The translations under genes were made by a program, and so were the position numbers. This document shows, in pieces, positions 5,132 to 32,580 of a stretch of DNA of 40,846 nt. This DNA comes from a bacterium (GTDB taxonomy: Bacteria; UBA9089; CG2-30-40-21; SBAY01). Below the pieces are notes generated by a model. It was not told the origin of the DNA. It saw only the letters and a program-made list of their open reading frames with translations, and searched no databases. The stretch spans positions 1-40,846 of the forward strand of contig JBFLYA010000006.1 in assembly GCA_040757115.1 (NCBI GenBank). Reading direction: 5' to 3'. Position 1 is the stretch's first letter, and every line of letters starts with the position of its first letter.

Positions 5132-5208
5132 AACTATTCAGCCACAGAGGGACACAGATGAAACACTGAAAATTCGTAATCCGTGTCAATCAGTGGTTGA
5201 ATACTGTT
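5132..5208. mobile_element. MITE-like repeat, family 1 (short copy, ~77 bp)
   Basis: aactattcagcc...cagtggttgaatactgtt shares termini and the 'gatgaaacact(g/a)aaaattcgtaatccgtgtc' core with 954-1202. It overlaps the 3' end of the 391-aa gene. Confidence 0.5.
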
Positions 5209-6382
5209 ATCCTTCTTTTCTTGGTATAGTTAAGATAAATTCACTCTCTATAACCTCAAGTAGCACATCTTTACCAGTAGTCTTTTTTACAGATTCTATT
5301 ATTCTTTGTATTCCAGTTCCTATATCTGTTACAAATCCCATCTTGCCAAGTAAGTTATATATTGTTGGGTTTCTTACCACATGGGCTCCACCTATTTTAA
5401 TGTTTTCAATACTGACGCTATTAGGTAATTTGCCTGGGCTATGAAACTCTATCCTGTTAGTAAATATAAATATCCGAATAGGAGCACTAATAGTATAATC
5501 CCTATGGGCTACTGCATTAACAAGGGCTTCTCTTAAGACAAAATCTTCAATCTCAGGATATTTTTCATTTTCAAGTCCTTTTATAATATGTTTTTCTTTT
5601 ATGTAAATCTTTAGAAATCGCATACAATCCTCAAGTATTTGTGGAACTTTACCGTCAAACTTTTTTAGATCAGATGGTGGAATAGCCATATCATCTCCAT
5701 CTATATAAGCAGTAACTATGTATGAAGTTGGAATATAAAATTGAGGGTTTTCTCCAAAAAACAGAATTCCTGCAAGGGTTGGTTTTTTGTTTTTTGAAAG
5801 CGATTTTATATTAATTAAATACGGTATTAAATCTTTATCTTTTACTTTTAGAGGGAAATACCTTTCTAAAAATTTTTTAGCATAATCAGTATCAATATCT
5901 TTAATACTTGCTCTTGAAATTTCAATCTCATCGTAGTATATACTTTCAGTAGCCTGGAAAAGGCGCAGAAGTTCTTGTCTTCCTGCCTGCCTGCATCTAT
6001 TGGCACTTCGTATGTAATATAATCCTCTTCCAGTTCTGTAAGGTCTTTGATCCCCTTTAGGAACATTCACTATTATTATATTTTTCTCAACAACTACTAA
6101 TGACTCAGTTACAACAGTACAAGGCGGTTCACATCTATTAAAGGCAACATCATCAATTTTCCTTATAGTTTCATCCAGTTCTTCCCTTTCTAATCCAACA
6201 ATTTCACCATTATCACGAACACCTATAATTATTTGACCTCCGTCTGTATTTGCAAAACAAACAATACTTTTTGCAAGTTCTTCATTATCAGTAAGTTTTT
6301 CTTTGAAATCGGTATGTAAATCCTCGCCTTTTAGGATTCTTTCTCTAAGTTCATTCATCATGTTTCTCCTTTGATTGACCAC
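5207..6382 (-). CDS. putative transcriptional regulator with AlbA_2 (Schlafen-like divergent AAA) N-domain and RecG-C-like HATPase_c_4/HTH C-domain
   Basis: N-terminus ELRERILKGEDLHTDFKEKLTDNEELAKSIVCFANTDGGQIIIGVRDNGEIVG matches the AlbA_2 consensus (E..EFK.....AK.I.AFAN..GG.I..GV.D.G). C-terminal ~150 aa (REALVNAVAHRDY...PG.LP) matches the RecG C-terminal-like regulator domain. Confidence 0.7.
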   Translation of the reverse strand: MVNQRRNMMNELRERILKGEDLHTDFKEKLTDNEELAKSIVCFANTDGGQIIIGVRDNGEIVGLEREELDETIRKIDDVAFNRCEPPCTVVTESLVVVEKNIIIVNVPKGDQRPYRTGRGLYYIRSANRCRQAGRQELLRLFQATESIYYDEIEISRASIKDIDTDYAKKFLERYFPLKVKDKDLIPYLINIKSLSKNKKPTLAGILFFGENPQFYIPTSYIVTAYIDGDDMAIPPSDLKKFDGKVPQILEDCMRFLKIYIKEKHIIKGLENEKYPEIEDFVLREALVNAVAHRDYTISAPIRIFIFTNRIEFHSPGKLPNSVSIENIKIGGAHVVRNPTIYNLLGKMGFVTDIGTGIQRIIESVKKTTGKDVLLEVIESEFILTIPRKEG

Positions 6383-12875: not shown

Positions 12876-13931
12876 TTAATTTTCCTCTAACATCTTCTTT
12901 ATCTTTTCCTTTCCAAGAAGTTTTATAAGATCTCTTTGTATTTTCTCTTCCCCAATGCTACGAATTACCTCTTTTTCCCCAATGCTACGAATTACCTCTT
13001 TTTCTCCAATGCTACGAATTACCTCTTTTTCCCCAATGCTACGAATTACCTTCTTTTCCCCAATGCTACGAATTACCTTCTCCTCTCCAATCCCTTGCAC
13101 AAATTTGTCAATCCCTACTATATCGACAAGCTCTCTCATTATATCTGGTCTATCTGCTAATGTCTTCGGCATCAATTTTACCTCCTCTTCTCCCAGACTC
13201 CGAAGTAACCTCTCCTTACCAATACCCTGGATAAACTTATCAACTCCAACTATATCTGCCAGTTCACCAATTATATCTGGTCTATCTGCTAATGTCTGTG
13301 GCATTAATTTCACCTCCTCCTTAAATTCATCAGGATGTAGATACAACCCTGTTTCTATTAACTCTACTAACTCTACCTCTAATATATCTTCCCTTTTACT
13401 ACCTATTCCCCTGGCTAATTCCCTAATGGATTCTCCTGAAGTAAAAAGAATTAGTCCATAGTTTTCAGGAGTCACCTCTAACCTATCCAGCTGGATTAAA
13501 TAAAAATTAAACCCAAAATCCGCAAAATAAAGCCCTTCCTTTATCTTTGCCAGTTTATGCCCATTACCACGAATATAATCCTCTATCCCCTTTATACCAC
13601 CGCTTAAAAGTGCATAAACATTTATTTGTCTTCGCCATTCTATATTCTTTTTTATCTTAAATAATAGCACATAAGCAAATAATCGGTCAAAATCATTCCG
13701 GGTGAATCTATCCCCAGGTGATTTATATTCAATAACATTATAATCAGTAAATGATTGGAAGACAAAAGGTAAGGATTTAACATCCGCATCCTTGCCCTTT
13801 TTAATGACCACAATATCTATCCTTAATGGCATTTTGCCAACTTCAACCTCAGTTTCAACCGTAAACCCTTTAGGTTCGAGTAGATGTTTTAATACATTTG
13901 AGAAATACGGATGCCATTTCTTCTTCATCAT
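12876..13931 (-). CDS. PD-(D/E)xK nuclease-family (Rpn/TIGR01784-like putative transposase/invertase) protein with C-terminal tandem peptide repeats
   Basis: N-terminal core RIDIVVI ... VIEYKS supplies D...E-x-K in the expected order and spacing. The C-terminus carries 2 x 39-aa (EEVKLMPxTLADRPDI..EL.DIVG.DKF.QGIG.E) and 6 x 9-aa (V/I)IRSIGEKE repeats. Confidence 0.5.
   Translation of the reverse strand: MMKKKWHPYFSNVLKHLLEPKGFTVETEVEVGKMPLRIDIVVIKKGKDADVKSLPFVFQSFTDYNVIEYKSPGDRFTRNDFDRLFAYVLLFKIKKNIEWRRQINVYALLSGGIKGIEDYIRGNGHKLAKIKEGLYFADFGFNFYLIQLDRLEVTPENYGLILFTSGESIRELARGIGSKREDILEVELVELIETGLYLHPDEFKEEVKLMPQTLADRPDIIGELADIVGVDKFIQGIGKERLLRSLGEEEVKLMPKTLADRPDIMRELVDIVGIDKFVQGIGEEKVIRSIGEKKVIRSIGEKEVIRSIGEKEVIRSIGEKEVIRSIGEEKIQRDLIKLLGKEKIKKMLEEN
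12936..13100. repeat. 27-bp perfect/near-perfect tandem repeat x6 (within CDS; encodes IRSIGEKEV x6)
   Basis: ccccaatgctacgaattacctcttttt(c/t) repeated head-to-tail. It also creates an artefactual 168-aa ORF on the opposite strand. Confidence 0.8.
13101..13335. repeat. ~117-bp direct repeat x2 within the same CDS
   Basis: atatctggtctatctgctaatgtct(t/g)(c/t)ggcat(c/t)aatttcacctcctc and flanking sequence occur twice. Confidence 0.65.
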
Positions 13932-14115: not shown

Positions 14116-15669
14116 TTATCTCTTGATCAAGAAACTCCTTTTCTCTTCGATAGATTTCTTCTCTCCATAGCTAATCTCAAATATGGCAATATATTCACCG
14201 GGCTCAAGATTATGAGGTTGTAGTAAATCTATCTTGTGAGTTCCTTGAGGTAAGATTAATATCCCTTCAGGAAGTAATATTTCAGCCACTTTTTCTCCAT
14301 GTCTTTCCTGAACTACAACTTTACCCGTAGGTTGAAGGCTTACATTCCCAGCATTCGTAAGGTTGAATGACACCTTCAACTCCTTGAGATTTGGTAAGAT
14401 TTTTAAATCGTTAAGAATGAGATTCTCTTGCAAAGTATTGGGAATAATTATGCCAATGGGCACAATAGCCTCTCCTCGTTTATCGCCAGAAGAGGCAATA
14501 AACAAAATCGCTCCATATTTCCCTCCCCGTTCCTCTTTAGGTACGGAGATATTATATTTTACAACCTTTTGTTCATTAGCGGGAATAGTAAAGGATGAAG
14601 GATTCACTTTAAGGCAATTTACGCAGGAATATGAAGTAGTGCCTGGCTCTAAATAGATAATCCGTCCCTTCTCATCAATAAATGCATCTCTTAATTCTAC
14701 CCGGATATCAATAGGGATATTCTCGGTATTAAATAATTGGATTACTCTACTTCGAAACCCTTGTGGCATAACTTTCTCATTTGCTGCCGTAGGAAGTGTA
14801 TAGAAGCTGAGGTATTCTTCACTCTTTTCTTCACCTACTCCTTTGGCTAAGACACCATTCTTTACCATAACTGGAGTTTTGCTCATTAATATCTTTTTTC
14901 TACCATATTTTTCTTGACCATAAGGGATTTTAATCTCAGCGGTATAATTGCCATCAGGCAACTTCTGGTTAATTACTGCCTTAAAATCTCGTATATCCTC
15001 GGGAAACATAGTGTAAGTATCAGCAGTAATTGGAGTTTGGGTAATTATCCTTCCTCGACCACTCTTGATATATAATATTCCTTTATCTGGAACCAGACGA
15101 ATATTACCTTTATTCTCTACGGTTATGGTAAAGATTGTATTTTCTTTTTCTTTTGTCATATCCGTATTCAAGATATTGATTTTTTCTGTAAATCCTCTAA
15201 TTCCAACCGTCAGATAGACAATAGATGCTATTCGATAATGTGCCGTAATCCCACCTTTAGCCGTTTTCTCTGGTAGGGTTTCGCACATAATTGCGGCATA
15301 CCTTTCGCCAATTGGTGTTCCCCGTGGTATGGTGACTTTACATAAAATCTTCTTTTTCTCATCCTCTTTTATAATCATCTCACCCTCTGGTTGTAGTTTT
15401 ATCCATTTTGCGCATGAATATTTTGACATACCAGCTGGAGGATATCTAAACTCCCCATTTCTTTCAATAGTAATATCAGTGGGATATATTTTTACTTTTG
15501 CCTCTTTTTTATCTGAAATAAAGATGTTAATCTCAAATGTCCTTGATGTTCCTGGGGAACCTTTAATTTCAGTAGCAAATGGGTCAAAACCAAGTTTCCA
15601 GGCAAAAGATTCTTTCCCTCCTAAACTAATAATCAACAAAATAAGTATTGTAATCTTAATTCCTCTCAT
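14116..15669 (-). CDS. secreted protein with two internally duplicated ~240-aa β-sandwich-like modules (unknown function)
   Basis: N-terminal signal peptide (MRGIKITILILLIISLGG). The two halves share the pattern F.I..F.......V.IYP.D......G.......SC..W / YSCVNCLKVNP plus a charged hairpin. It is divergently arranged with the secretin gene. Confidence 0.55.
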   Translation of the reverse strand: MRGIKITILILLIISLGGKESFAWKLGFDPFATEIKGSPGTSRTFEINIFISDKKEAKVKIYPTDITIERNGEFRYPPAGMSKYSCAKWIKLQPEGEMIIKEDEKKKILCKVTIPRGTPIGERYAAIMCETLPEKTAKGGITAHYRIASIVYLTVGIRGFTEKINILNTDMTKEKENTIFTITVENKGNIRLVPDKGILYIKSGRGRIITQTPITADTYTMFPEDIRDFKAVINQKLPDGNYTAEIKIPYGQEKYGRKKILMSKTPVMVKNGVLAKGVGEEKSEEYLSFYTLPTAANEKVMPQGFRSRVIQLFNTENIPIDIRVELRDAFIDEKGRIIYLEPGTTSYSCVNCLKVNPSSFTIPANEQKVVKYNISVPKEERGGKYGAILFIASSGDKRGEAIVPIGIIIPNTLQENLILNDLKILPNLKELKVSFNLTNAGNVSLQPTGKVVVQERHGEKVAEILLPEGILILPQGTHKIDLLQPHNLEPGEYIAIFEISYGEKKSIEEKRSFLIKR

Positions 15670-15845
15670 CTTCTTTAATAACCTCCTTTGGAATTAGAAA
15701 GTAGAGAGTAAAGAAAACAAGCCTCTTCCCTCTCTCTACTACCAATATATCATAATTCATTATGTTCTGTCAACAAAATTTTCAGAGAAAGGGGCAAAGA
15801 ATTTTGTTGACAAACATTAAAACTTAATGATATTATAGTAGCATA

Positions 15846-17714
15846 ATGAAATATAAAAAGGTGATTTTTGGGGGAATTGCTATCTTTTTAACTATAGTGA
15901 ATAACTCTTATCCTGCCACAGTTTCTACATCCTCACTCCTTAGAAATGGTGATTTTAGTGCGGGACTTGATTTGTGGGAAGAACTACGGCAGGGGAAGGC
16001 AAATATTATGACTATTAATATTGTTAAAGATAGCCCAAAGTATCCACATGTTCTTCAATTTAAAAGAAAAATAGCCAGAAAAACCATAGGTAAATTAGGG
16101 ATTAAACAGGATATAAATAGAGAGGTTGCTACTGTATCTACATCACTTTTTATCAAAACAGATGTAAAGGTAATTCACTCTTCACTTATGAGTGATACCC
16201 TTCTCAAAGGTGGGATTTACCCACTTACTCTGGAAATAGAGTATTTGGATGAACAGGGAAAAATCTACTTGTGGAAGCATGGCTTCTTATATTCCACACC
16301 CAGATATAAAGATAAAGGAGAAATGGTAAAACGGAATGAATGGCACTCATATACTTCTGAAAACCTACTTTCATTAACTCCAAAGCCAAAGATAATCACT
16401 CAGATAAAGGTCTATGGTGAAGGTTGGGAATTCTGGGCAAGGATAGCAAATCTTCAACTACTTGAAGAAAGACTATCAGTAGCCGAAGAATTAGTTACAG
16501 AGCAAAAGGAAGGCGATGAAGGAACCTCCCCCTTAATCCCTCTCCAGAAGGAGATAATTGTGGGGAGTTCGAGTCAAGAAGAAATTAAGAAAGAGGAAAA
16601 ATCTGCACTTGCGTCTGAAGAGAAAGAACCACTAATTACCAATACCTTTGTTGATACTGATATAAGGCAAGCACTTCAAGATATAGCTTCACAGGCGCAG
16701 GTTACTATTATTGCAGACGAGAGTGTTCAAGGAGTAGTATCTATGGAGTTAGATAATCTACCGTTAGAAAAGGCGCTTAAAAGAATCCTTACCCCTTCGG
16801 GATATCTTTTTAAAAAAATAGAAGATTATTACCTGGTTACCTCGTCTGACCCTACTACCCCGACATTCCTTCTATTATCTACAGTTGAACGAATTAAACC
16901 CAGTTACTTAAAAGTAGATTCCATATCTAATCTCCTACCAGCTAATTATGCTAAATATATCAAAACAGATTCTGGCGAGAATATCCTTACTGTAACCGCA
17001 CCAGCAGAGATTATTGAAGAAATTAAGGAATATATAAAAAAGATTGACCTTGCACCTAAACAAATACTTGTAGAGGTGATGGTAACTGAATTATCCGAGC
17101 AAGCAAGAAGAAGTCTGGGAATAGATTGGTCTTTCCAGGAGGGAAAGACTAAAGTTACACTTCTACCTACTACACTGGAGTTAAAAGGGAATTATCTAAG
17201 TGTTGGAGTATCCTCAGAAGCTATGGCTACCATAAAGATATTAGCTGAGAAAGGAAAAGCAAAGATTAGAGCTACTCCGCGAATACTTACTATAAATGGC
17301 AAAACAGCTAATATCTATATGGGTAGGGAAGAATACTATTCCCTACCAGGAACTGCTTATCAACCCGCAAGTTTTAGTAAGGTATTAAGTGGAATTACCT
17401 TAAAAATTACCCCTTATATATGTAGTGATGATGAGATTACAGTTTCTATTGAACCTGATGTAAGTGATGTTACTGGAATAGGCAAGGAAGGTTATCCGGT
17501 TATCAGTAAGCGAACTGCAAATACTATGGTCAGGATGAAAAATGGCCAAACAATTACTATTGGTGGACTAATTCAACAAAAAGAGGAACATAATATCACC
17601 AAGATACCCGTGATAGGAAGTATACCTTTATTAGGATTCCTTTTCCGGAATACTCAAATTAAATCTGCAGAAACAGAAATAGTGATATTTATTACACCGC
17701 ATATCATTGATTAA
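15846..17714 (+). CDS. secretin-family outer-membrane channel (GspD/PilQ-type) with atypical CBM-like N-terminal domain
   Basis: C-terminal secretin domain: the GG motif with downstream P.IG..P.LG.LF ... E.VIFITPHII, which is the canonical secretin C-domain signature. A secretin-N/STN-like domain (FVDTDIRQALQDIASQAQVTII...LPLEKALKRIL) is present. The N-terminal ~200 aa begins NGDFSAGLDLWE, reminiscent of CBM4_9-type carbohydrate-binding modules, and is followed by an E/K/S-rich linker. Confidence 0.82.
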   Translation: MKYKKVIFGGIAIFLTIVNNSYPATVSTSSLLRNGDFSAGLDLWEELRQGKANIMTINIVKDSPKYPHVLQFKRKIARKTIGKLGIKQDINREVATVSTSLFIKTDVKVIHSSLMSDTLLKGGIYPLTLEIEYLDEQGKIYLWKHGFLYSTPRYKDKGEMVKRNEWHSYTSENLLSLTPKPKIITQIKVYGEGWEFWARIANLQLLEERLSVAEELVTEQKEGDEGTSPLIPLQKEIIVGSSSQEEIKKEEKSALASEEKEPLITNTFVDTDIRQALQDIASQAQVTIIADESVQGVVSMELDNLPLEKALKRILTPSGYLFKKIEDYYLVTSSDPTTPTFLLLSTVERIKPSYLKVDSISNLLPANYAKYIKTDSGENILTVTAPAEIIEEIKEYIKKIDLAPKQILVEVMVTELSEQARRSLGIDWSFQEGKTKVTLLPTTLELKGNYLSVGVSSEAMATIKILAEKGKAKIRATPRILTINGKTANIYMGREEYYSLPGTAYQPASFSKVLSGITLKITPYICSDDEITVSIEPDVSDVTGIGKEGYPVISKRTANTMVRMKNGQTITIGGLIQQKEEHNITKIPVIGSIPLLGFLFRNTQIKSAETEIVIFITPHIID

Positions 17715-17749: not shown

Positions 17750-18316
17750 AATGGTTAACCCTACAACGACATCTATGATTGATCCACAAATCAGGTGGTC
17801 TGGTGTCTGGGTGTCTAAGTGCCTGTGAGGTGGGTATGAGTGACGATAAGTATCGGCTGGATGATTTTGAGCTTTATCAACTGGCACGTAAGTTTCGACA
17901 AAATGTTTACAAGCTCATTAAACAGCTTCCATCTGAGGAGCGCTATTGTTTAGACCCGCAGATGAGAAAGGCGATTGTCTCAGTCACGAACAACATCGCA
18001 GAAGGACATGGACGTTGGCATTATCAGGAGAATATACGATTTTGCAGGATTGCAAGAGGTTCGGTTGAAGAAATTCTGGACGACATCAATGTTTGTATGG
18101 ATGAAGGCTACGGAGAGAAATCCGTAAGCGTTCAGCTCAGGAAGGAAGGTTACGAGCTAATTGCGAAAGTTAACAGTTATATTGGCTATCTACGTAGATG
18201 TAAGCAAGGAATGGAGGAAGAACAGTCTGGTGGTCAGACACCAGACACCTATCCCTCAGAGTATCTGAACGCTTACTAGCGGTAAAATTAGTAAATGACG
18301 TTGTAGGGTTAAATAA
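17750..18316. mobile_element. TIR-flanked, GC-elevated cassette carrying a four-helix-bundle (23S rRNA IVS-type) gene
   Basis: Imperfect TIRs ttaaccctacaacgacat (17755-17773) and atgacgttgtagggttaa (18297-18314). Inner inverted motifs ggtggtctggtgtctgg / ccagacaccagac. The enclosed gene is ~47% GC against ~35% in the flanks. Confidence 0.4.
17836..18279 (+). CDS. four-helix-bundle protein (TIGR02436; 23S rRNA intervening-sequence protein family)
   Basis: Y.LARKFRQNVYKLIKQLP..ERY.L..QMRKA..SV..NIAEG.GR....E...F..IARGS..E matches the family consensus. Start placed at MSDDKYRL. The ORF-track start at 17779 lies inside the left TIR. Confidence 0.82.
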   Translation: MSDDKYRLDDFELYQLARKFRQNVYKLIKQLPSEERYCLDPQMRKAIVSVTNNIAEGHGRWHYQENIRFCRIARGSVEEILDDINVCMDEGYGEKSVSVQLRKEGYELIAKVNSYIGYLRRCKQGMEEEQSGGQTPDTYPSEYLNAY

Positions 18317-18622
18317 GTTTTTGATTTTCGATTTTTGTCCAATCTAAACAGGTTAATACGCCATTTCACTAACCCATTACAAATTTGCTAAACTTTTTCC
18401 TTGACAATTTTATAGGTTAAATGGTATAATTATCTTACCTTAAAAAAATGGGAGGGAATATTATATGATGGAATTGAAATATATTTAAGTTTGGAACTTA
18501 AATCAGATAAAAAATACCTATAGGCTTAACATAACCGTATCCTTATTCTAATAAAAATCTCATAGTAGGAAATTCACCTTCTTTAAGAAGGACAAGATAT
18601 ATATAGAAGGGGAAAGATAAAA

Positions 18623-19279
18623 ATGTCTACTCCATTTGAGAAGGAAATTTACGATTATGAATTAGAGGCGGATATTTCTTTTGAAAGATTGGAAAAGGTA
18701 AAGCCTACAGAAGATGAGGATACAATTTTAATTAGAAAAAGTATTGAAGGTGATAATTCTGCTTTTGAGAAATTAGTGGGTCGATATGAAGCAAGGGTTT
18801 ATCACCTGATTTACAATATCTTAGAGAATAAAGAAGATGCAGAAGATTTATTACAAGAAACTTTCCTCAAGGTTTATCGATTTCTTTATCAGTTTAGAGG
18901 GGAAGCAAAATTTATTACCTATCTATATCGGATAGCAACAAATCTTTGCTTTCAAAAATTAAAGAAAAAAAAGACTTCCTATTCTCTCGATAACCTTTTA
19001 GAGGCTAATCTTAATGATGAGATGGTTGAATTAGTAAGTATGAAGTTGGGTAATCCTGAAGAAATACTTTTAAAAAAGGAACTTGGCTTAATAATAAATG
19101 AAGCTATTCAAAAATTACCTGAAAAATTCAGAGTAGTCTTTTTCCTCCGAGAAATAGAAAATTTTTCTAATAAACAAGTAAGTGAAATATTAGGTTATTC
19201 AATTGGAACTATAAAATCACAAATACATAGGATAAGGCGATTCTTACATAAGAAAATACTTCCTTATCTCACAATTTAA
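18623..19279 (+). CDS. RNA polymerase ECF-type sigma-70 factor
   Basis: Region 2 (AEDLLQETFLKVYRFLYQFRGEA.F.TYLYRIATN) and region 4 HTH (Q.VSEILGYSIGTIKSQIHR.RR.L). A ~45-aa N-terminal extension is present. Confidence 0.88.
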   Translation: MSTPFEKEIYDYELEADISFERLEKVKPTEDEDTILIRKSIEGDNSAFEKLVGRYEARVYHLIYNILENKEDAEDLLQETFLKVYRFLYQFRGEAKFITYLYRIATNLCFQKLKKKKTSYSLDNLLEANLNDEMVELVSMKLGNPEEILLKKELGLIINEAIQKLPEKFRVVFFLREIENFSNKQVSEILGYSIGTIKSQIHRIRRFLHKKILPYLTI

Positions 19280-19496
19280 TTTTAACCGTTGGGGTAGATA
19301 CCTAAACGCTTACTTTATTTTTTTAACGAATGTTCTCCTTTCCTGAATAAGCATTCATTAGTTGGAAAGGTTAAAGATAACTATAAGCACGACAATGTAA
19401 GTTTTTCTGTAACAGAAAATAGCGATGTAAAGACAAACATAAGGGTTTTTTAATATCAGTCTGGAATACCAAATTATAAGGGAGAACATTAAAATA

Positions 19497-19727
19497 ATGG
19501 AGTGTAATAAGATAAAAGCTCTATTATCAGATTACATAGATTTAGAGCTAAAACCTGGTTTGCAGAGTAAAGTAGAAAAACATATCTTTAAGTGTCCAAA
19601 ATGTAAGTCTTATCTAATAACCTTACAGAGAACCATCCAAATATATAAGTCTGTCCTTAAACCCTCTATTCCACCTGATGTTTCTGAACGATTGCACAAA
19701 AGGCTTAAAGAAGAAATTGAGAAGTGA
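19497..19727 (+). CDS. zinc-finger (zf-HC2/ZAS-type) anti-sigma factor, short cytoplasmic form
   Basis: C-x26-H-x3-C-x2-C arrangement (C3...H30..C34..C37) with the LSDYIDLEL motif typical of anti-sigma N-domains. It lies 217 bp downstream of the ECF sigma gene. Confidence 0.68.
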   Translation: MECNKIKALLSDYIDLELKPGLQSKVEKHIFKCPKCKSYLITLQRTIQIYKSVLKPSIPPDVSERLHKRLKEEIEK

Positions 19728-20724: not shown

Positions 20725-23700
20725 ATGTGTAAAAAAATTATTTGGGGAATAATGTTGGGAATAGTGATGATTATTAATGCAAAGGTTGCTGTAGCAACAG
20801 ATGTCAGTGGTACTATCACTTCAAATACTACCTGGGATGTTGCTGGCAGTCCCTACATCATCACTGCTGATGTCATTGTCGATCAAGGAGTAACATTAGA
20901 GATTGAGCCGAATGTAGTAGTTAAATTTGCGACCGATACATCATTAATCAGCTATGGGACATTGACCGCTGTTGGAATACCGAATGGGACGATTACCTTT
21001 ACTTCTAATAAACCTACACCTGCTGCTGGAGATTGGACGAGTATTAAACTCAGTGGTACAGGAAGTAGTAGGAGCCAGATCAGTTATTGTCTGACACAGT
21101 ATGCCAAGCAGGCAGTATATTTGGAGAACACGGATAATGTAACGATAACATATAATACAATTAGAGATAATAAAGGTAATGATGGAATTGATAATCAAGC
21201 AACTACTGGGGAGATAGGTGCTGGTATCTATTTAGTGTCGTCAACTAATAATAACATTGAGAATAATACTATTTTTAATAACATTGGTGGACAAGGAGGA
21301 GATGGTGGATATGGTGGTGGAGTTGGTGGTGCTGCTGCAGGAGGACCAGGGGTTGGAATCTATCTTTCTTCATCAAGTAAGAATACTATCTCTCAAAATA
21401 CCATCTTTGATAACATTGGTGGACAAGGGGGAAGAGGAGCGCTTTTTGGAGGAGGAGGTTCAGGTGGTTCTGGAGCTGGAATTTACCTCTCTTCCGCATC
21501 AGTAGAGAATACCATCTCTCAAAACACCATTTTTAACAATGCTGGTGGGCAAGGAGGACAGAGTGGTGATTCTGCTCCAGGTGGTGCAGGCGATCCAGGG
21601 GTAGGATATGGCATCTATATTGATGATTCAAGCTGTTACAACAATACTATTGCTACAACCAATACTTATAATGGTGAGCCAATTCATTTCTACTATAGTC
21701 AAACAGGAATTATTATTGAAGATCAGATTTTAACTGGATCACCTACAACAAACTTAGGAAAGATTAACTTGATTAACTGTTCAGACTTTACTATCAGAGG
21801 AAATACTATTTCAGGAGCAAGAGGATATAGTGGTGAGAGTGGAGATCCTGAAGGTGAACAAGGAGGTAATGGAGTAGGGATATACCTATATCGCTCAGGA
21901 AGTGGTGTTGTTACAAGCAATAGTATTTCCGATAATATTGGTGGTCGTGGTGGTACCGGTCGGAAAGGTTGGTATGCAGCGAGTACAGGAGGTTCAGGTG
22001 GCATGGGATGTGGAATATACCTTTTGTCCTCTACAGATGTTGAGATTAGTGATAATATCATTTCTAACAATCAAGGTGGAAGAGGTGGTGGTTCTGCTGG
22101 TTGGGGTTCGGGTGGTAAAGGTGGACTTGGAGTAGGAATATCTCTCGGATCATCTACTTTAAACAGTATTAGTAATAACACTATTTCTAATAGCCAAGGT
22201 GGACTTTATGGAGGTGGATGGCCGTGTGGAAGAAATGGATTAGGTTGTGGTATCTATATAGACTCAAACAGTTATAATAATATTATAGATACAACTAATA
22301 CCTCTGATGGTCAACCAATCCATTATTATTACAACCGGACAGGGATTATTATTGAAAATCAGACATTAACAGGAACACCTACTACAAACTTAGGAAAGAT
22401 TGTTTTAATTAACTGTTCAAATTTTATTATCAGAAATAATACCATCTCTGGAGCTAGAGGAGATAATGGTAAAACTGGTTGGGCTAATCAAGTAGGTCAT
22501 CCTGGTGAAATTGGTGCTGGAATTTACATTTTATCATCAACAGGTAATACTATAATTGATAACACTATCTCTGATAATCAGGGGGGATTAGGTGGAGGAG
22601 GTGGTGGTGATGCTTCAGGTGGACCTGGTGGTATAGGAACGGGAATATACCTTGGTTCATCTACAAATAATACTATAAGTGGCAACACAATTTCTAATAA
22701 CAGTGGCGGAGAAGGTGGTCATGCTACTTATGGCAATAATTCTTCGGTAGGTGGCTGTGGTGGTGATGGTGCTGGAATTTATCTTTTATCATCAACTGAT
22801 AATACTATTCTCTCTAATAATATATTAGAGAATAGTGGAGGTAGAGGAGGTGGTGTTTATCAACAAGGTAATACTGGTGGTGTCGGTGCTGGTATATACT
22901 TAAACTCATCAGATAATAACAATATTAGTAGAAATAGTATCACAGACAATAATGGTGGTACAGGTGGCACTGGTAATTGTAGCCGAAATAAAGCTGGTGG
23001 TGCTGGTGGTATTGGTGCTGGTATATACTTAAACTCATCAGATAATAACAATATCAGGGAGAATAATGCCATTACAGATAATAGTGGTGGTACAGGTGGC
23101 AGTGGTTGTCCCATTGGTTCAAATGGTAATGGAGTTGGTATCTACGGTGCCTCTTCAGAAGTTGCCAATCTTATCTACAATAACATCTACAACAATACAA
23201 CCTATAACCTCTCAACTGACATCTCTCCGGGCACACAAACAGCAGAATATAACTGGTGGGGAACTTCAGTTGAGTCTGAAATTGTAGCTAAACTATCTGG
23301 TAAGATTGATTATATTCCCTGGTTGATGGGGACATGGACAGAATCAGCACAGATTACAATCTCACCTACTTCTGGTACTGTGGGTACCATCGTCACTGTA
23401 GAAGGTGAAGGATTTGGAAGTACAGAAACTGTACAGATAGATTTTGGAACGACTAAGACGATTACTACTGCCGCAACTAATGGCTTAGGAACTTTCTCAG
23501 TTACTTTCACTATTGATAACCAGCCAGCAGGTACAACTACAGTTACAGCTACTGGTCTTACATCTTCCTATTCTGCTACTGCCACATTTACAATAATTTC
23601 CATTACACAACCAGAGATTACTTTAATATCACCAACCTCTGGTACCGTGGGTACCATCGTTACTGTAGAAGGTAACGGGTTTGGTTCAACAGAGGCTATT

Positions 23701-26700
23701 CGGATAGACTTTGGGACAACTAAAACAATTAAAATAAGCACTACCAATGGAAGTGGACAATTTACTACTACTTTTACAGTCGATTACCAACCAGGCGGAA
23801 CTACTACTCTAACCGCAACAGGGCTTACTTCCAATTTAGTCGCTACGGCTACCTTTGTGACCATCACCCAGCCAACTACCGTTATTGAGCAAGAAGACTT
23901 CTGGAGATATACATATTCACCTAACTCTGGCTGGGAAACATTAGGATATGATGACAGTAGTTGGAGTAAAGGCAGAGCTCCTTTCGGAAATCAGTCTGAT
24001 GGTGATTGGATTCCTCATACAGATTGGCCTGCAGGGACGACACTATACCTTAGAAAGTATATTGATTTACCTGCATCTGCTAAATTGACTATCTATACTG
24101 GCGTAGATAACGAAATCCATATCTATATAAATGGTGTTAATATTTTTAATGCCTCTGCTCATGGATTTACATATCGCTGGGAATATACATTTGACATTCC
24201 TAAAGGATATATAAACCCAGGAAGAAATGTAATTGCTGTGCAAGCAGTGGATTGGGGTGGCGCGACAGGATTTGATCTGAAGGCTATTGCTGAGGTCAAT
24301 ATACCTCCAATGGGTTCTATGGCAATTAGTTCTGTGCCTTCGGAGGCAAAAATTTACTCAGATGGAATGGATACAGGTAAACTCACTCCTGCTGTCTTGA
24401 CCAATCTATCCACAGGTAGTCATCAAATTGTCTTAACTAAGCCTTTGTATAACAATTGGGCTGAAACTGTTACTGTATCCTCAGGACAGACTACAGAAAT
24501 AGATGTTCCTCTTAGACTTTCTCCAACAATTATCCTTACCCCTATTTCTGGTACTGTTGGAATTATAATCACAGTTACAGGTGAAAACTTTAGTCCAAAT
24601 GAGGCAATTAGGATTGATTTTGGTCTGATTTCTTCAATTACCATCGCCAGTACTACTGCCTACGGCACCTTTGCCACTACTTTTACGGTATCTTCTCAAC
24701 CAGCAGGAACCACTACTATTGTGGCTACTGGTCTTACCTCCGGGTCAAAAGCCTATGCTACCTTCACGCTTACTATTCCGGCGCAAGCAACACTGACTGT
24801 CCGATTAGACCAGATTGATGCCGCTAAATTCCCAACTATCGAATGCCATGTCCGTGTAACTCAAGGAACTACATCTATTGCAGGACTGACTGCGGATAAT
24901 TTCCAATTAACCGAGCAGTCTGAATTAGAATCTATAGCGACCGTAGAGATAATCAGTGTCAGTGCAACTAATTCCGCCGGAGTAGCCATCGCCCATGTAT
25001 TAGATAGAAGTGGTAGTATGCAAGGTCAGAAGATAACAGATGCTAAAACTGCCGCTAATTCCCTTGTTGATATGATGCAACCTCTGGATAGGATGGCGAT
25101 AGTCTCCTTTGCTTCAAATGTTACTGTTGACCAATCCTTTACCAGTAATCAATCTGCCTTACATACCGCTATTAACAACTTAGTTGCCGATGGAGCCACG
25201 GCTTTGTATGATGGCATATATACGGGAATAGGTCAATGCACACAAGAAATTGGTGTTAAAGCAGTTATTGCTTTAACCGATGGTCAAGAAAATAGTAGTT
25301 CACATACTCAGCAACAGGTAATTGATTATGCTATTGCCAGTGCTGTGCCTGTTTATACCATTGGTTTAGGCAGTGATGTGAATACTGACATACTTACGCA
25401 AATTGCCACAACTACTGGTGGAACATATCATTTTGCACCAAACTCTACTCAGCTACAAGAGATATTTGCAGATATTAGAGAAGAGATAGAACAGCAGTAT
25501 TTAGTTACTTATAATACTCATAACCCGAATTATGATGGCACACTGCGGAATGTAGTCATTACTGCGAGTTATAACTCTGCCATTGGCTCAGATTCTGGGA
25601 CATATCGTGTAGATGAACCACCGAAAATTATCCGCACCCCAGAAACTATTGCCTTAGGTTCACAAAGTCAACCTGCCAACCAACCATTGACTATCGCCGC
25701 AACCATTACTGATAATACCGCAGTTACTAATGCCACCTTATTCTATCGACATTCGGGAACACTAACCAGCTATTCTCAGCTGACTATGACTCATATGGGT
25801 AATAACCTGTATAAAACAACTATCCCAGCCGCAAGTGTTAATTACCCGGGCGTGGATTACTATATCACTGCCTCAGATGGTAGATTAGTCGCTTCAGACC
25901 CAAAAAACAATCCTGAAATCTACCCATATCAGATTGCGGTATATCCTAATGAAAAACCAGTGATTATACATACCCCTGTTTCTGGAGCGTTAATTAACTC
26001 ATCAGTAACTATTACTGCCTATGCTACGGATACCACAGATTATGTTACTTCGGTAACCTTATCCTATCGTATCAAGGGTTATGTGCTTTATGAGAATGTA
26101 GTTATGACTAAGGCAGGTAATACTTATACCGCTACCATACCGGCGAATAAGATGACCTTTGTCGGGGTCGAATACTATATTGTCGCGATGGACAATTATG
26201 GTTTGCGGGCATATCACGGCACAGATGTTAATCCACACTACATTCGTCCCAATGTTCCACCGAGTATAACCATTACCGCACCACCAGCACAAGGGGCTTA
26301 TGCTACCAGTTCTTATACCATCGCCTGGGTAGATGCTGACCCGGATAATGATGCCCAAATATCACTCTACTATGATACCAATAACACTAACTATGACGGC
26401 TCAACTATCACTACTGGACTTTCTGAGGATAGCAGTATCAATAGCTATATCTGGAATCTCTCAACTATCCCCGAAGGTAGTTACTATATCTATGCCTTGA
26501 TAGATGATGGCACTAATACACCCGTCTATGACTACAGCAATGGACCATTAAATATTGATCATTCACTACCACGAGCAACCATTACTACCACCCCTGCCTC
26601 ACCAATTACTGCTGCTGGGACAGTCTATGTTATCTTAACTGCCTCAGAAAAATTATCTGCCGTCTCACTGACATTTACTCCCTATGGTAAATCACCTCTC

Positions 26701-29700
26701 TCTATACCGTTGACTACCACGGATTATATCACCTGGCAAGGTAATTTCCAGGTTACTCTTTATACTGGCGATGGAATAGGCACATTTAACTATTCCTTGA
26801 AAGATTTATTCAATAATATTGTTACCGGAAGCCAAACTTTTGAGATAGATGTTTCAGGGGTAATATTTACGCAGTCAAATTATACCTTCAATGTTGAGAA
26901 GGACTATAATCAGCAGGGATTGGTTAGGGTTAAGAATATCGATAATGAGCCACACCAATTCTTCGCAGAATCTATTAATGTCCCTAAACCAATAGCGGTA
27001 AATTTTATGGGTGATGGTTCTGTGGATAATCCGATTACCTTACAGCCCGGGGAAGAGACAAATCTTATTCTATCAATGCATACCCAATATGCCACGAAAA
27101 CAAATTACTCCCTCGGCGGTAACTTGACCAATGATAAAGGGTTAATCTCGCATACGACAATAAATATTAATGTTCGCCTGCCCGAGGTTAGATTTACGGT
27201 TAGTCTTATCAGTGAAGACCCAATGACATTAGCCAAAACCTATAGAATTACCAATACGGGTGCTGACCCAATTCCGGATTTAACCATTGACCTCGGTGCA
27301 CTTAAAGATAAGGTGATTATGCATCCGTTACTCTATTCGCTATACTTAGGCACATCGAGTTCAGTTGAATTTAAGCTCATCCCCATTATCACTGAGACTT
27401 TTAGTGGGCTATCTGGCACCTGGAGTGTGAGTAGTGGAGATAAGGTGGTGGAGGTTCTTACTACCTGGCAGGTTACAGGAACCATCTATAAGGTAACATT
27501 AAATCAGCCCAAACTCGTCTTTGATATTAATTATCTATATCAATATGAATTAGAACAACATAAAGTAATAGTGGGATATTGTCCTAATGGAGCACCAATC
27601 TGGGGATGGGTAGCAGACCCGAGGTTAATTAAGAGCATTGACCCATTCTATATACCAACAGGATTTGGAACTTCAAATGTCAAAAGTGCAAACTTGAGTA
27701 TGCATTTTACAGAAGGAAATATTGAGCAAAATCGCAATACCTATATCTATATGAATAATAATGAAGTGGGTAGATTAATAAATGTTAATCCGGAAGGGTA
27801 TTATACATTTCCAGTTGCGCCAGACTATTTTATGTATCCCGACCCGTATGTTGGTAATCGCCGCAATGAGATTAGTATGGAGACAGATATAAATCCTGCT
27901 CATTTAGCCTGGGTAGGTAATTTCAGGGTTACCATACTCTTAGATAAGTTTGAGGTGTATGTTATTGCTACAAGTTCAGCGGCGGCTACCGCTACTGCCT
28001 GGGCATTACCCTATGTGCATCATAATTCAGACCAACTATTTGTCAATATTACTCAACCACCAGAGGGATTTGAGTATAAGATAGGTGCGAAGGTGCAGAT
28101 TAAGGCTGAGGTAAAGGATGAGCATGACATCTTCCAGTGGCTCTGCAATGTCTGTGTAAGTTTTACCAATAGCACCCAAACACTGAATTTATACGATGAT
28201 GGCATGCATAATGATGCCGGTGTAAATGACGGTATTTATGCCAACTACTGGTATCCTGCCAATGAAGGTAGTGTTACTATCACCGTGGTGGCGAATAACT
28301 GTAAGACACAGGCGACTGCGACAGTTAGTGGCAATATTATTGGCAATCGACCGCCGAGCATAGACATTCTTACCCCTACTGAATTACAAACATTACAAGG
28401 AACTACCACTATCTCGTATCAAGCCACAGACCCAGATGGCGATAGTTTATATTTCTATATCTATTATAGTGCCTCCTCGATTGGTCCCTGGAATCTGTTC
28501 TACAGTGGCGTAAATACTGTCTATCTCTGGAATACTAATATCCTGGAAAATGGTATTTACTATATTCGGGTAGTAGCCAGTGACCCTAACGGATTGACAG
28601 GCTCAGATACCGTCAAGGTAACTGTAAAGAATAAAAAACCAAAGATTAGAGTTAATCCTACTGCTGGCTCTCAATGTGCCTTAGTTACGGTTTATGGTGA
28701 AGACTTTGGTGCGACAGAGACGGTTCAGATTGACTTTGGGTTACATCTTAATATTACTACTGGCATGACTAATGCCGAAGGCTCATTTACTACCTTTTTT
28801 ACTGTCGATACGCAACCGGTTGGCACAGTCTCAGTAGTCGCTACCGGTATTGATTCACACCTGAGGGCCTCTGCAGATTTCACTATTACTGCACTACACT
28901 ATATCAAAGGATATATTCGCTATGCGAATGGTGAAGGAATTCCAGGCATCAAAGTCTATTTAATGAGCCCAATAGTAGATGACTGTTTTATCACTTCATC
29001 TGATGGTTATTATGAATTTACCGGTTTGCCCACCGGATATTATCGTGTAAGACCATATAAAGAATGGTATACATTTGAGCCAGCAGGAAGGGAATACCGC
29101 ATACTTACTGCCAGTTGCGATAATCAGAACTACATCGGGACACCACAGAGGTATTATATTAAAGGTAGATGTAACACAGAGGCAGATGAAGGGATAGGTG
29201 GAGTGCAGGTAGTTTTATCAGGTTCTGTGCAGGCAACCTATACTACTAATGCCAGTGGATATTATGCCTTCTGGGATGTTCCGGCGGGCACATATACCAT
29301 CACCCCTTATAGGCAATTCTATACCTTTGTTCCGGCAAATAGAATCCTTCCTAACATAGATTTCCATCAAGCAGGACAGGATTTTGTTGGCACATCTACT
29401 ACTGTAGAAAGATATTATATCAAAGGAACTATCACGGATATGAGTCATAATCCGTTAGCCGGGGTAAGGGTATATCTGTTTGGCACGATGGATAATGTTT
29501 TTATCACCAGAGCAGATGGTTATTATGAATTTACCAATCTTGAGTCAGGTTATTATCGAACCAGCCTGTGGAAACAAGGATATACCTTCGAACCATCTGG
29601 CAGAAGATATGAATACCTGTGTAGCCATTATGAGCATCAAGACTTTGACGATGATGGTCCACCACAAGGAATTCAACCACCACCACCTACCAGTACACTC

Positions 29701-30372
29701 ACATCGCTATTCTTTGTAGTAAAGGATAATGCAGGAAAAGGAATACCAGGGGCAAAGATTACACTGATGCCATTAAATGTAGAAAATGTAGTGAGGGTCT
29801 TCAGACCCGTTGGGGAAAACGCAGAAAATGTAGTGAGGGTCTTCAGACCCGTTGGGGAAAACGCATCTAAAGATGCTCACTACAGACCCGTCTCGGCTGA
29901 GATTATCACTGATGAAAATGGTATGGCAGATATGGTCAAGCCTATCTGGGAATTGTCTGGTAACTACACCATAAAGGTGGTAAAGTTAGGGTATAACTGT
30001 GAAAGTGAGGAGATTACTATTACGGATGAGGAATCGGTTTTTGACCTTGACTTTGTCTTAGAAGCATCACAGCCGTTACCACCCCAGAATAAACTTTACC
30101 AGAATTACCCAAATCCATTCAATCCCAATCAGGAAGAAACACAGATTCCGTATGATTTAGCCGTGAATGCTCATATAGTCATTAAGATTTACAACATTGC
30201 TGGAGAATTAGTCAGGACATTAGAGGAAGATAAACTTGCCGGGTCAAATATTACTACCCCATGGAATGGTAGAAATGATGATGGTGATATTGTCTCCAAC
30301 GGCGTCTATTTCTATCAATTACATATTGGTGGAAGTGTAGTTGGGACTAAGAAGATATTAGTAATAAAATAG
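20725..30372 (+). CDS. giant secreted surface protein (3215 aa): Gly-rich parallel β-helix repeats, IPT/TIG x4, GH2-N-like sugar-binding jelly roll, PEGA, vWFA, CarboxypepD_reg-like x3, T9SS-type C-terminal sorting domain
   Basis: Signal peptide, then ~15 PbH1-like coils, each N.I..N.I.DN.GG.GG...G.GIYL.SS. IPT/TIG units follow (ISPTSGTVGTIVTVEG.GFG.TE...IDFG). YDDSSW...IYTGVDNEIHIYINGVNI...DIPKGYINPGRNVIAV matches the GH2 N-terminal sugar-binding fold. A PEGA domain (SSVPSEAKIYSDG...TPAVLTNLSTGSHQIVLTKP) is present. The vWFA MIDAS motif DRSGSM...ALYDGI...LTDGQEN is present. YIKGY.R...G.G..GV.VYL..... repeats occur three times. The C-terminus NYPNPFNP.T.I.Y.L...A.V.IKIYNIAGELVRTL......G.....WNG.N..G..V.SGVYFY matches Por_Secre_tail/FlgD-Ig-like. 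Confidence 0.88.
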   Translation: MCKKIIWGIMLGIVMIINAKVAVATDVSGTITSNTTWDVAGSPYIITADVIVDQGVTLEIEPNVVVKFATDTSLISYGTLTAVGIPNGTITFTSNKPTPAAGDWTSIKLSGTGSSRSQISYCLTQYAKQAVYLENTDNVTITYNTIRDNKGNDGIDNQATTGEIGAGIYLVSSTNNNIENNTIFNNIGGQGGDGGYGGGVGGAAAGGPGVGIYLSSSSKNTISQNTIFDNIGGQGGRGALFGGGGSGGSGAGIYLSSASVENTISQNTIFNNAGGQGGQSGDSAPGGAGDPGVGYGIYIDDSSCYNNTIATTNTYNGEPIHFYYSQTGIIIEDQILTGSPTTNLGKINLINCSDFTIRGNTISGARGYSGESGDPEGEQGGNGVGIYLYRSGSGVVTSNSISDNIGGRGGTGRKGWYAASTGGSGGMGCGIYLLSSTDVEISDNIISNNQGGRGGGSAGWGSGGKGGLGVGISLGSSTLNSISNNTISNSQGGLYGGGWPCGRNGLGCGIYIDSNSYNNIIDTTNTSDGQPIHYYYNRTGIIIENQTLTGTPTTNLGKIVLINCSNFIIRNNTISGARGDNGKTGWANQVGHPGEIGAGIYILSSTGNTIIDNTISDNQGGLGGGGGGDASGGPGGIGTGIYLGSSTNNTISGNTISNNSGGEGGHATYGNNSSVGGCGGDGAGIYLLSSTDNTILSNNILENSGGRGGGVYQQGNTGGVGAGIYLNSSDNNNISRNSITDNNGGTGGTGNCSRNKAGGAGGIGAGIYLNSSDNNNIRENNAITDNSGGTGGSGCPIGSNGNGVGIYGASSEVANLIYNNIYNNTTYNLSTDISPGTQTAEYNWWGTSVESEIVAKLSGKIDYIPWLMGTWTESAQITISPTSGTVGTIVTVEGEGFGSTETVQIDFGTTKTITTAATNGLGTFSVTFTIDNQPAGTTTVTATGLTSSYSATATFTIISITQPEITLISPTSGTVGTIVTVEGNGFGSTEAIRIDFGTTKTIKISTTNGSGQFTTTFTVDYQPGGTTTLTATGLTSNLVATATFVTITQPTTVIEQEDFWRYTYSPNSGWETLGYDDSSWSKGRAPFGNQSDGDWIPHTDWPAGTTLYLRKYIDLPASAKLTIYTGVDNEIHIYINGVNIFNASAHGFTYRWEYTFDIPKGYINPGRNVIAVQAVDWGGATGFDLKAIAEVNIPPMGSMAISSVPSEAKIYSDGMDTGKLTPAVLTNLSTGSHQIVLTKPLYNNWAETVTVSSGQTTEIDVPLRLSPTIILTPISGTVGIIITVTGENFSPNEAIRIDFGLISSITIASTTAYGTFATTFTVSSQPAGTTTIVATGLTSGSKAYATFTLTIPAQATLTVRLDQIDAAKFPTIECHVRVTQGTTSIAGLTADNFQLTEQSELESIATVEIISVSATNSAGVAIAHVLDRSGSMQGQKITDAKTAANSLVDMMQPLDRMAIVSFASNVTVDQSFTSNQSALHTAINNLVADGATALYDGIYTGIGQCTQEIGVKAVIALTDGQENSSSHTQQQVIDYAIASAVPVYTIGLGSDVNTDILTQIATTTGGTYHFAPNSTQLQEIFADIREEIEQQYLVTYNTHNPNYDGTLRNVVITASYNSAIGSDSGTYRVDEPPKIIRTPETIALGSQSQPANQPLTIAATITDNTAVTNATLFYRHSGTLTSYSQLTMTHMGNNLYKTTIPAASVNYPGVDYYITASDGRLVASDPKNNPEIYPYQIAVYPNEKPVIIHTPVSGALINSSVTITAYATDTTDYVTSVTLSYRIKGYVLYENVVMTKAGNTYTATIPANKMTFVGVEYYIVAMDNYGLRAYHGTDVNPHYIRPNVPPSITITAPPAQGAYATSSYTIAWVDADPDNDAQISLYYDTNNTNYDGSTITTGLSEDSSINSYIWNLSTIPEGSYYIYALIDDGTNTPVYDYSNGPLNIDHSLPRATITTTPASPITAAGTVYVILTASEKLSAVSLTFTPYGKSPLSIPLTTTDYITWQGNFQVTLYTGDGIGTFNYSLKDLFNNIVTGSQTFEIDVSGVIFTQSNYTFNVEKDYNQQGLVRVKNIDNEPHQFFAESINVPKPIAVNFMGDGSVDNPITLQPGEETNLILSMHTQYATKTNYSLGGNLTNDKGLISHTTININVRLPEVRFTVSLISEDPMTLAKTYRITNTGADPIPDLTIDLGALKDKVIMHPLLYSLYLGTSSSVEFKLIPIITETFSGLSGTWSVSSGDKVVEVLTTWQVTGTIYKVTLNQPKLVFDINYLYQYELEQHKVIVGYCPNGAPIWGWVADPRLIKSIDPFYIPTGFGTSNVKSANLSMHFTEGNIEQNRNTYIYMNNNEVGRLINVNPEGYYTFPVAPDYFMYPDPYVGNRRNEISMETDINPAHLAWVGNFRVTILLDKFEVYVIATSSAAATATAWALPYVHHNSDQLFVNITQPPEGFEYKIGAKVQIKAEVKDEHDIFQWLCNVCVSFTNSTQTLNLYDDGMHNDAGVNDGIYANYWYPANEGSVTITVVANNCKTQATATVSGNIIGNRPPSIDILTPTELQTLQGTTTISYQATDPDGDSLYFYIYYSASSIGPWNLFYSGVNTVYLWNTNILENGIYYIRVVASDPNGLTGSDTVKVTVKNKKPKIRVNPTAGSQCALVTVYGEDFGATETVQIDFGLHLNITTGMTNAEGSFTTFFTVDTQPVGTVSVVATGIDSHLRASADFTITALHYIKGYIRYANGEGIPGIKVYLMSPIVDDCFITSSDGYYEFTGLPTGYYRVRPYKEWYTFEPAGREYRILTASCDNQNYIGTPQRYYIKGRCNTEADEGIGGVQVVLSGSVQATYTTNASGYYAFWDVPAGTYTITPYRQFYTFVPANRILPNIDFHQAGQDFVGTSTTVERYYIKGTITDMSHNPLAGVRVYLFGTMDNVFITRADGYYEFTNLESGYYRTSLWKQGYTFEPSGRRYEYLCSHYEHQDFDDDGPPQGIQPPPPTSTLTSLFFVVKDNAGKGIPGAKITLMPLNVENVVRVFRPVGENAENVVRVFRPVGENASKDAHYRPVSAEIITDENGMADMVKPIWELSGNYTIKVVKLGYNCESEEITITDEESVFDLDFVLEASQPLPPQNKLYQNYPNPFNPNQEETQIPYDLAVNAHIVIKIYNIAGELVRTLEEDKLAGSNITTPWNGRNDDGDIVSNGVYFYQLHIGGSVVGTKKILVIK
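29781..29897. mobile_element. MITE-like palindromic element family 3 inserted in-frame in the giant CDS, with tandem 42-bp duplication
   Basis: gaaaatgtagtgagggtcttcagacccgttggggaaaacgca x2 then tctaaagatgctcactacagaccc. Nested hairpins tgtagtgag/ctcactaca and gggtct-tc-agaccc. The same element lies intergenic at 40607-40704. Translated as ENVVRVFRPVGENA x2 ...KDAHYRPV. Confidence 0.7.
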
Positions 30373-30468
30373 GACGCAGATGTACAGGATTTACAGGATT
30401 TTTAAAAAATATTATCCTAATAATCTACGGAGAAAAATCTTGCGTCCCAAAAAAGGAGGTAAAATAAA

Positions 30469-31413: not shown

Positions 31414-31460
31414 CCGCAGGCTTGTATCCTGCGTAGCTCGGGTCAGTTCTGAAGAGTAAA

Positions 31461-31651
31461 TTTCCACCTGTGCGATTAGACTAATTCATCGCAGAGACGC
31501 AAAGGAAAAATAAATGTAAAATGTAAAATAGGAAATGAAAAATGGGAAATTTTAGTACTTCGCAAGACTCATTACCTTTCAGTTATACATTTTCATTTTA
31601 CATTTCTCATTTTACATTATCCATTTTACATTTAACCGCACAGGTGGAAAA
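31461..31651. mobile_element. MITE-like element family 2, copy B (inverted relative to copy A)
   Basis: tttccacctgtgcgattagactaattcatcgcagagacgc...catttaaccgcacaggtggaaaa is approximately the reverse complement of 20397-20583. It is followed by a tctgcgtctctg motif also seen at 10470-10495, 10705-10730 and 32750-32775. Confidence 0.7.
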
Positions 31652-31792
31652 TTCTCTGCGTCTCTGTGCCTCTGCGGTGAACAATTACGAAAAATTTCTC
31701 TCTTCAAACAAAAGCAAAAAGGAGGTGGTAAGATATTTCAACGCTGGCGAAGAGTTAACATAAAAATCTAAAACAAAAGGAGGTGAAAAAAA

Positions 31793-32428: not shown

Positions 32429-32470
32429 GAGGAACACACTATAAGAGTAGCAGTGTAGAACGAGAAGTAA

Positions 32471-32518: not shown

Positions 32519-32580
32519 ATAGCGGTTATTAACTGGAAGTTTACATAGGATAATACCCATAAATAAGGCATGAGAATAAT

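Follow-up and report, generated by a model that had tools for sequence, protein, structure and literature searches.

In a 40,846-nt stretch of bacterial DNA (contig JBFLYA010000006.1 of GenBank assembly GCA_040757115.1, GTDB lineage SBAY01; called here the window), the gene of a 622-aa secretin (15846..17714, + strand) is transcribed divergently from the gene of a 517-aa exported protein (14116..15669, − strand). We found that a secretin gene adjoins a homolog of the 517-aa gene, or shares an operon with it, at all 12 further loci examined, which makes 13 of 13 when the window is counted. Together the two genes appear to form the centre of a surface-export system that is both widespread and undescribed. 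The original prediction, made from the window alone, had placed both open reading frames exactly and had proposed a channel with a dedicated substrate or pilotin-like partner. The idea of a channel with its own partner held up in both linkage and co-evolution, while the two roles suggested for the partner became less likely, as discussed below.

The 12 distinct further loci (L001-L005, L009, L010, L013, L014/L015, L016 and L017) were sampled from profile search matches down to E ~5e-53. They lie mostly on short metagenomic contigs, and no complete genomes are in the sample. Chance adjacency of the secretin and the 517-aa gene is excluded, because the linkage holds at every one of the 13 loci; in several of them (L002, L003 and L017) the two genes overlap or abut. 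The partner secretins are mutually orthologous, with 33-69% identity. When pairwise identities of the two proteins across 12 loci were compared in a mirror-tree analysis, the correlation was r = 0.92 (Mantel p ~2e-4). Co-occurrence across genomes, which had been proposed as a check, was seen throughout the sample. No gene for an ATPase, inner-membrane platform, pilin, pseudopilin or usher, and no gene of a type II secretion system (T2SS), type IV pilus (T4P) or Tad machine, is adjacent to the pair at any of the 13 loci.

The 517-aa family is large. An exhaustive profile search returned 493 clusters at 50% identity that reach E<1e-30, nearly all of them of 500-600 aa. A word-indexed search found 13 homologs, and scans of genome and metagenome collections with degenerate patterns gave three loci and one locus, respectively, since short patterns of this kind cannot cover so divergent a family. 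Hosts of the pair include Zixibacteria, high-GC 'Bacillota' metagenome-assembled genomes (MAGs) of diderm Bacillota, a spore-former with a SASP gene and unclassified MAGs. At one locus (L013, 2206-3426), the double-unit gene that precedes the secretin measures about 407 codons from stop to stop and may be truncated or frameshifted.

The 517-aa protein (55 kDa, not a lipoprotein) begins with a typical Sec signal peptide, as had been predicted. On sequence reading, residues 1-23 (15601..15669, − strand) end in a putative cleavage site after SFA, MRGIKITILILLIISLGGKESFA|W, and contain no lipobox; a low-confidence helix at residues 2-17 of the structural model agrees with this. The two homologous halves that the original prediction had noticed were confirmed by within-protein comparison (22% identity, E 2e-9). 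Since halves of different homologs also match one another, at up to E 4e-17, the duplication is old, and the protein is the product of an ancient tandem duplication. Unit 1 (residues ~24-262; 14884..15600, − strand) is predicted to consist of a DUF916-like sandwich and a second Ig-like sandwich, and includes a poorly structured conserved loop at residues 65-89 with D65, G72, S85, C86 and W89. Unit 2 (residues ~289-517; 14119..14805, − strand) has the same two-domain arrangement, with conserved D332, G335, S348 and C349. The Cys-containing segments singled out earlier proved to be conserved: S85/C86 and S348/C349, which belong to a (Y)SC segment present in both halves, are invariant in nine homologs.

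The original prediction had called the module unannotatable by motif, and this did not stand. Pfam WxLIP_PGBD (PF06030, DUF916) matches the 517-aa protein in two stretches at E 6e-12 (46 bits versus a cutoff of 27.3), the better of them at residues 309-390 in unit 2. Among 60 diverse members of the family, PF06030 was found in 41, PF11797 (WxLIP_HBD, DUF3324) in five and a PapD-like ASH domain in 13. An AlphaFold2 model based on eight homologs was confident, with a mean predicted local distance difference test (pLDDT) score of 84.4, and showed four beta-sandwich domains. Its best fold matches were two-domain PapD-type periplasmic chaperones and WxLIP, and it contains Ig-like pairs in a boomerang arrangement. 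Given the PF06030, PF11797 and ASH matches and the four-sandwich model, each half is predicted to be a two-domain unit of the PapD-chaperone/WxLIP type, and we assign the protein to the WxLIP family from its sequence and modelled fold. The DUF916/DUF3324 families suggested earlier for a fold search were thus the right lead; alpha-macroglobulin-like and tip-adhesin folds, also suggested, were absent from the top matches. No Pfam model of the PapD family matches the protein, and no sequence-level relative of the family was found in the PDB. The protein ends in ...EEKRSFLIKR without a membrane anchor, and a hydrophobic C-terminal 19-mer occurs in none of 148 family representatives.

The identification of the 622-aa protein as a secretin was confirmed by Pfam, which finds STN/N0, Secretin_N and Secretin (PF00263, E 1e-41) within residues 268-622. 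From the N-terminus the protein comprises a signal peptide, an extra domain, an acidic linker, N0/STN, N1 and the secretin core. The last three form a minimal secretin module (16647..17711, + strand) with N0/STN at residues 268-333, N1 at 349-406 and the secretin domain at 466-622. This module is orthologous to the 386-541-aa secretins of related operons (33-60% identity). The nearest solved relatives in the PDB are PilQ and GspD (E ~1e-31), and the core covers positions 27-400 of the 403 in phrog_1012, the profile of M13 pIV (E 3e-51). The protein falls under every curated NCBIfam cutoff for the named subfamilies (GspD, PilQ, SctC, MshL, HofQ and PilN), with scores of 182.7 versus 284 for PilQ and 175 versus 351 for GspD. 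Genes of a cognate secretin machine were found neither in the window nor at any related locus examined. Judged from these comparisons, the secretins of the pair form a distinct minimal orthologous group that co-evolves with the 517-aa family and is its obligatory genomic partner.

The extra N-terminal domain (residues ~24-210; 15915..16475, + strand), about 190 aa long and carrying the motif NGDFSxGLxxW, was found in three secretins only, those of the window, L001 and L002, besides a few standalone proteins. It has no match in Pfam or among PDB sequence profiles. Its distribution suggests a separate module that was gained in this lineage. The domain was also considered as a fused copy of the small-protein family described below, and this was rejected, with negative BLAST and HMM (hidden Markov model) searches and an HHalign probability of 0.8%. 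At two other loci (L005, 4151-5530; L016, 4439-5704) an additional unannotated protein of 421-459 aa is encoded near the secretin. Both proteins end like outer-membrane proteins and the one in L005 has a weak Secretin_N match; they may represent a further outer-membrane component in some variants.

A family of small proteins with the conserved motifs RKPGTYA, KLWNKI and SSCEYE adjoins the pair at seven related loci (L003, L004, L009, L010, L013, L014/L015 and L017), where its genes sit immediately upstream. The five of these loci with complete flanks (L003, L009, L010, L014/L015 and L017) have two paralogs each, one of about 230 aa and the other of 250-669 aa with the same domain at its C-terminus. 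L004 and L013 have one recognisable member each, and L005 and L016 encode other unannotated small proteins that could not be related to the family. When 802 ORFs were compared with the small-family HMM, the best match outside the family (E 0.03) was a gene of the window that encodes a 211-aa exported protein, AB1422_01000 (31793..32428, + strand). A profile of the 211-aa protein matched the operon-encoded family with an HHalign probability of 96% (E 3.5e-9), which points to a divergent member. Three paralogs of this protein are encoded elsewhere in the same MAG, one of them on a 1.7-kb contig. The top fold matches of the 211-aa protein are chaperone-usher pilins, though they are weak. On this remote homology and a weak structural model, the protein is a candidate cargo or subunit of the system.

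We propose, with about even confidence, that the pair forms the centre of an envelope module conserved in double-membraned bacteria, in which the double WxLIP-like protein, itself remaining periplasmic, passes strand-complemented partners to its dedicated secretin. The 517-aa protein and the small beta-sandwich proteins would enter the periplasm via Sec; the latter would be supplied in the window by the 211-aa protein and its paralogs, and in most other genomes by the small and the large paralog of the same operon. Each WxLIP-like unit would then bind one partner, a strand of its conserved loop (D..G..YSC.W, residues 65-89 and 332-352) completing the partner's incomplete sandwich. The complex would attach to N0 and N1, the periplasmic domains of the cognate secretin, through which its partners would be exported or displayed on the surface, or built into a fibre. 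The energy for export would come from folding or assembly and not from an ATPase. Strand complementation is the principle on which the chaperones of chaperone-usher systems work. Strand insertion has also been predicted for WxLIP-WxL pairs of Gram-positive bacteria (PMC10599100).

Several observations weigh against this proposal. The chaperone role is drawn from a resemblance of modelled folds, and Ig-like sandwiches are common. Known WxLIP proteins have been described as surface scaffolds and not as chaperones (PMC10599100). No small-family gene adjoins the pair in the window, L001 or L002, and the 211-aa gene lies 14 kb from the pair, beside genes of type IX secretion. The model of the 211-aa protein is weak (pLDDT 65). 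The accessory small proteins have no Pfam match, and no similarity between them and WxL domains could be detected. Most loci lie on short contigs, so that an ATPase-driven machine may also be encoded elsewhere in these genomes.

The 517-aa protein could itself be the cargo. It would then pass through its own secretin to the surface, where its two units would act as a scaffold or adhesin that holds the small proteins, and the system would correspond directly, at an outer membrane, to the WxLIP surface complex of Gram-positive bacteria. This comes close to the dedicated substrate of the original prediction, and we consider it rather unlikely. It would agree with the scaffold function of known WxLIP proteins, which bind WxL proteins at the surface (PMC10599100), with the three loci that hold the pair only (the window, L001 and L002), with the missing anchor, which makes the protein releasable, and with the passage of folded proteins through secretins, established for T2SS. 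An unanchored scaffold would however be lost unless bound to the secretin or the outer membrane, the protein carries no recognisable export signal, and its fold is nearest to periplasmic chaperones. The operons with a small and a large paralog suggest these as the displayed proteins, and the small beta-sandwich proteins found at most loci are the better cargo candidates.

We hold it clearly improbable that the 517-aa protein serves the channel as an accessory in assembly, peptidoglycan anchoring or gating, with the secretin working for a T2SS, T4P or Tad machine whose genes lie elsewhere. Secretins commonly need dedicated accessories such as pilotins, GspAB and plug proteins (PMC13392014), DUF916 is predicted to bind N-acetylglucosamine of peptidoglycan (PMC10599100), and the genomes are incomplete, so that distant ATPase genes are possible. 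Nevertheless, genes of these machines are adjacent at 0 of 13 loci, and the secretin, below all NCBIfam subfamily cutoffs, belongs to an orthologous group of its own that is tied to the 517-aa partner. The pilotin-like role envisaged in the original prediction fits poorly, since a pilotin is a small lipoprotein, whereas the 517-aa protein has a PapD/WxLIP fold, a mass of 55 kDa and no lipobox. The conserved small-protein paralogs would also be left unexplained. An origin of the secretin from a filamentous prophage, as a pIV-like remnant next to an unrelated phage or host cargo gene, is extremely improbable. Almost the full length of the M13 pIV profile can be aligned with the secretin core, but the PilQ and GspD profiles score as well as pIV. 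Its neighbours match no other phage family in PHROGs, no Zot-like ATPase is present, and different phyla keep the pair although its chromosomal surroundings otherwise vary. A defence-system origin of the pair was also considered and rejected; PADLOC gave no match, and PHROGs gave the generic pIV secretin family only.

Compared with known systems, the proposed chaperone-like module shares features with three. A Gram-positive WxL cluster consists of a small WxL protein, a large WxL protein and a WxLIP protein (PMC10599100). Like these clusters (Csc of Lactiplantibacillus and those of Enterococcus and Listeria), the module includes a PF06030 protein, some members of whose family match PF11797 as well, and the 517-aa fold matches the solved structure of EfmWxLIP1. 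Most related loci likewise combine a small protein, a large protein with the same C-terminal domain and a WxLIP-like gene. In contrast to the Gram-positive WxLIP, which joins DUF916, DUF3324 and a transmembrane helix, the 517-aa protein has two units fused in tandem and no transmembrane anchor. Its partners lack a detectable WxL domain, so that the small/large pairs are analogous but unrelated by sequence, and its hosts have an outer membrane and always the dedicated secretin, which no description of WxL clusters mentions. The resemblance to chaperone-usher systems (PapD/FimC/CfaA/CsuC with PapC/FimD) lies in the two-domain periplasmic chaperones as best structural matches, in operons without an ATPase, in a predicted WxLIP binding mode that equals strand complementation, and in small beta-sandwich partners for which the pilins of these systems are the best fold matches, if weak ones. 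The outer-membrane component here is however a secretin, no locus encodes an usher, and the 517-aa protein is tandem-duplicated, twice the size of a chaperone and without sequence similarity to PapD family models. With the secretin machines (GspD of T2SS, PilQ of T4P, RcpA of Tad, SctC of the type III secretion system and phage pIV) the module shares true N0, N1 and C-terminal secretin domains, and in size and architecture the 622-aa secretin is nearest to the minimal secretins of the pIV and RcpA type. It differs from them in having no ATPase, platform, pseudopilin or pilin gene adjacent, a WxLIP/PapD-like protein as constant partner and the additional N-terminal domain.

In the literature searched, no WxLIP or PapD-like protein was described as the partner of a secretin, an absence that is not proof that none exists, and searches on orphan secretins and on WxL in diderms returned nothing relevant. 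To our knowledge, all well-studied secretins work with an ATPase-driven machine of the inner membrane, and in every known fibre pathway assisted by a chaperone the channel is an usher or of the CsgG type. Neither chaperones, PapD nor Gram-negative bacteria are mentioned in the WxLIP paper (PMC10599100). As a broader and distinctly tentative possibility, the module may represent a pathway of outer-membrane export or fibre assembly that has gone unrecognised, a 'chaperone-secretin' route, in which a tandem PapD/WxLIP-like protein feeds strand-complemented subunits through a secretin independent of an ATPase, and of which the Gram-positive WxL/WxLIP complexes would be single-membrane descendants or relatives. 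The presence of the module in diderm, spore-forming Bacillota is consistent with such a relationship. Half-size proteins with a single WxLIP-like unit (~330-350 aa) were observed at two more loci (L006, 10001-11002; L007, 7699-8745 and 2829-3893). Around the half-size genes, these loci encode four or five further unannotated proteins of ~350 aa; they contain sortase genes, have no secretin and apparently belong to single-membrane hosts. They are probably a single-membrane version of the system.

The two divergent genes are separated by 176 bp. The inverted repeat that the original prediction reported there is real and perfect over 13 nt (TGTCAACAAAATT at 15768-15780 and AATTTTGTTGACA at 15800-15812), but a regulatory role specific to the module was not upheld, as its arms read as parts of ordinary promoters. 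The putative promoter of the 517-aa gene (15744..15773, − strand) consists of TTGACA, an 18-nt spacer and TATATT with a TG element; its −35 hexamer lies within the left arm, and the leader would be ~70 nt. An AGGAGG Shine-Dalgarno sequence (15682..15687, − strand) is read 12 nt upstream of the ATG of this gene. The putative secretin promoter (15807..15836, + strand) reads TTGACA, 18 nt and TATTAT, again with TG, and its −35 hexamer lies within the right arm. Its −10 box stops 9 nt short of the ATG, which would leave the secretin mRNA with little or no leader. In an alignment with L001, the only other divergent locus, the two arms are conserved better than any other block. With at most one mismatch, the 13-mer occurs at four sites in the window versus 0.31 expected, and two of these precede unrelated genes with the same promoter geometry. 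The repeat was therefore rejected as a module-specific operator and is best read as two back-to-back sigma-70-type promoters in the ordinary architecture of this organism.

The recurrent promoter motif (1852-1864, 13960-13972, 15768-15780 and 15800-15812) is made up of an A/T tract with TTGACA, 17-18 nt and a −10 box that ends 0-9 nt before the start codon. This pattern suggests that many mRNAs of the organism have no leader or almost none. The −10 box at 1828 directly adjoins the annotated ATG, which may therefore not be the true start codon.

The window spans the whole contig and has a GC content of ~38%. Directly downstream of the 517-aa gene lies the gene of a 351-aa protein (12876..13931, − strand) with a leaderless-type promoter of its own at 13937-13965. 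Its C-terminus consists of tandem peptide repeats, with GEKEVIRSI about five times and a duplicated block of ~45 aa, and its only matches are a weak one to HSDR_N_2 and a weak PHROG. On the other side, a four-helix-bundle gene of the '23S rRNA intervening-sequence protein' family (within 17779..19727, + strand) stands between the secretin and a pair encoding an extracytoplasmic function (ECF) sigma factor and a zf-HC2 anti-sigma factor. The secretin of L001 is likewise followed by such a pair, so that a link to the module may exist in this lineage; the promoters of the module look like those of sigma-70 and not of ECF type. The region 20725..40604 (+ strand) is a type IX secretion context, with a 3215-aa protein with beta-helix, VWA and CarboxypepD_reg domains, a PorV-like gene (30469..31413) and a 2589-aa C25-peptidase-like protein with Por_Secre_tail. 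The 211-aa gene sits between the PorV-like and C25 genes, and in L001 the 3' end of a C25 homolog adjoins the 519-aa gene. Farther from the pair, at 5207..6382 (− strand), is the gene of a protein with Schlafen AlbA_2 and HATPase_c_4 domains, for which PADLOC gave matches to pAgo-associated and PDC-S50 defence-candidate models.

If the proposed role of the pair is correct, a secretin with a chaperone-like protein as its only constant partner would be a new way for proteins to cross the outer membrane in folded form. Hundreds of clusters of 'hypothetical' proteins in environmental bacteria, Zixibacteria and diderm Bacillota among them, would gain a function. The WxL/WxLIP complexes of lactobacilli, enterococci and Listeria would be tied to an outer-membrane system, which would bear on what became of surface machinery as Bacillota lost or kept the outer membrane.

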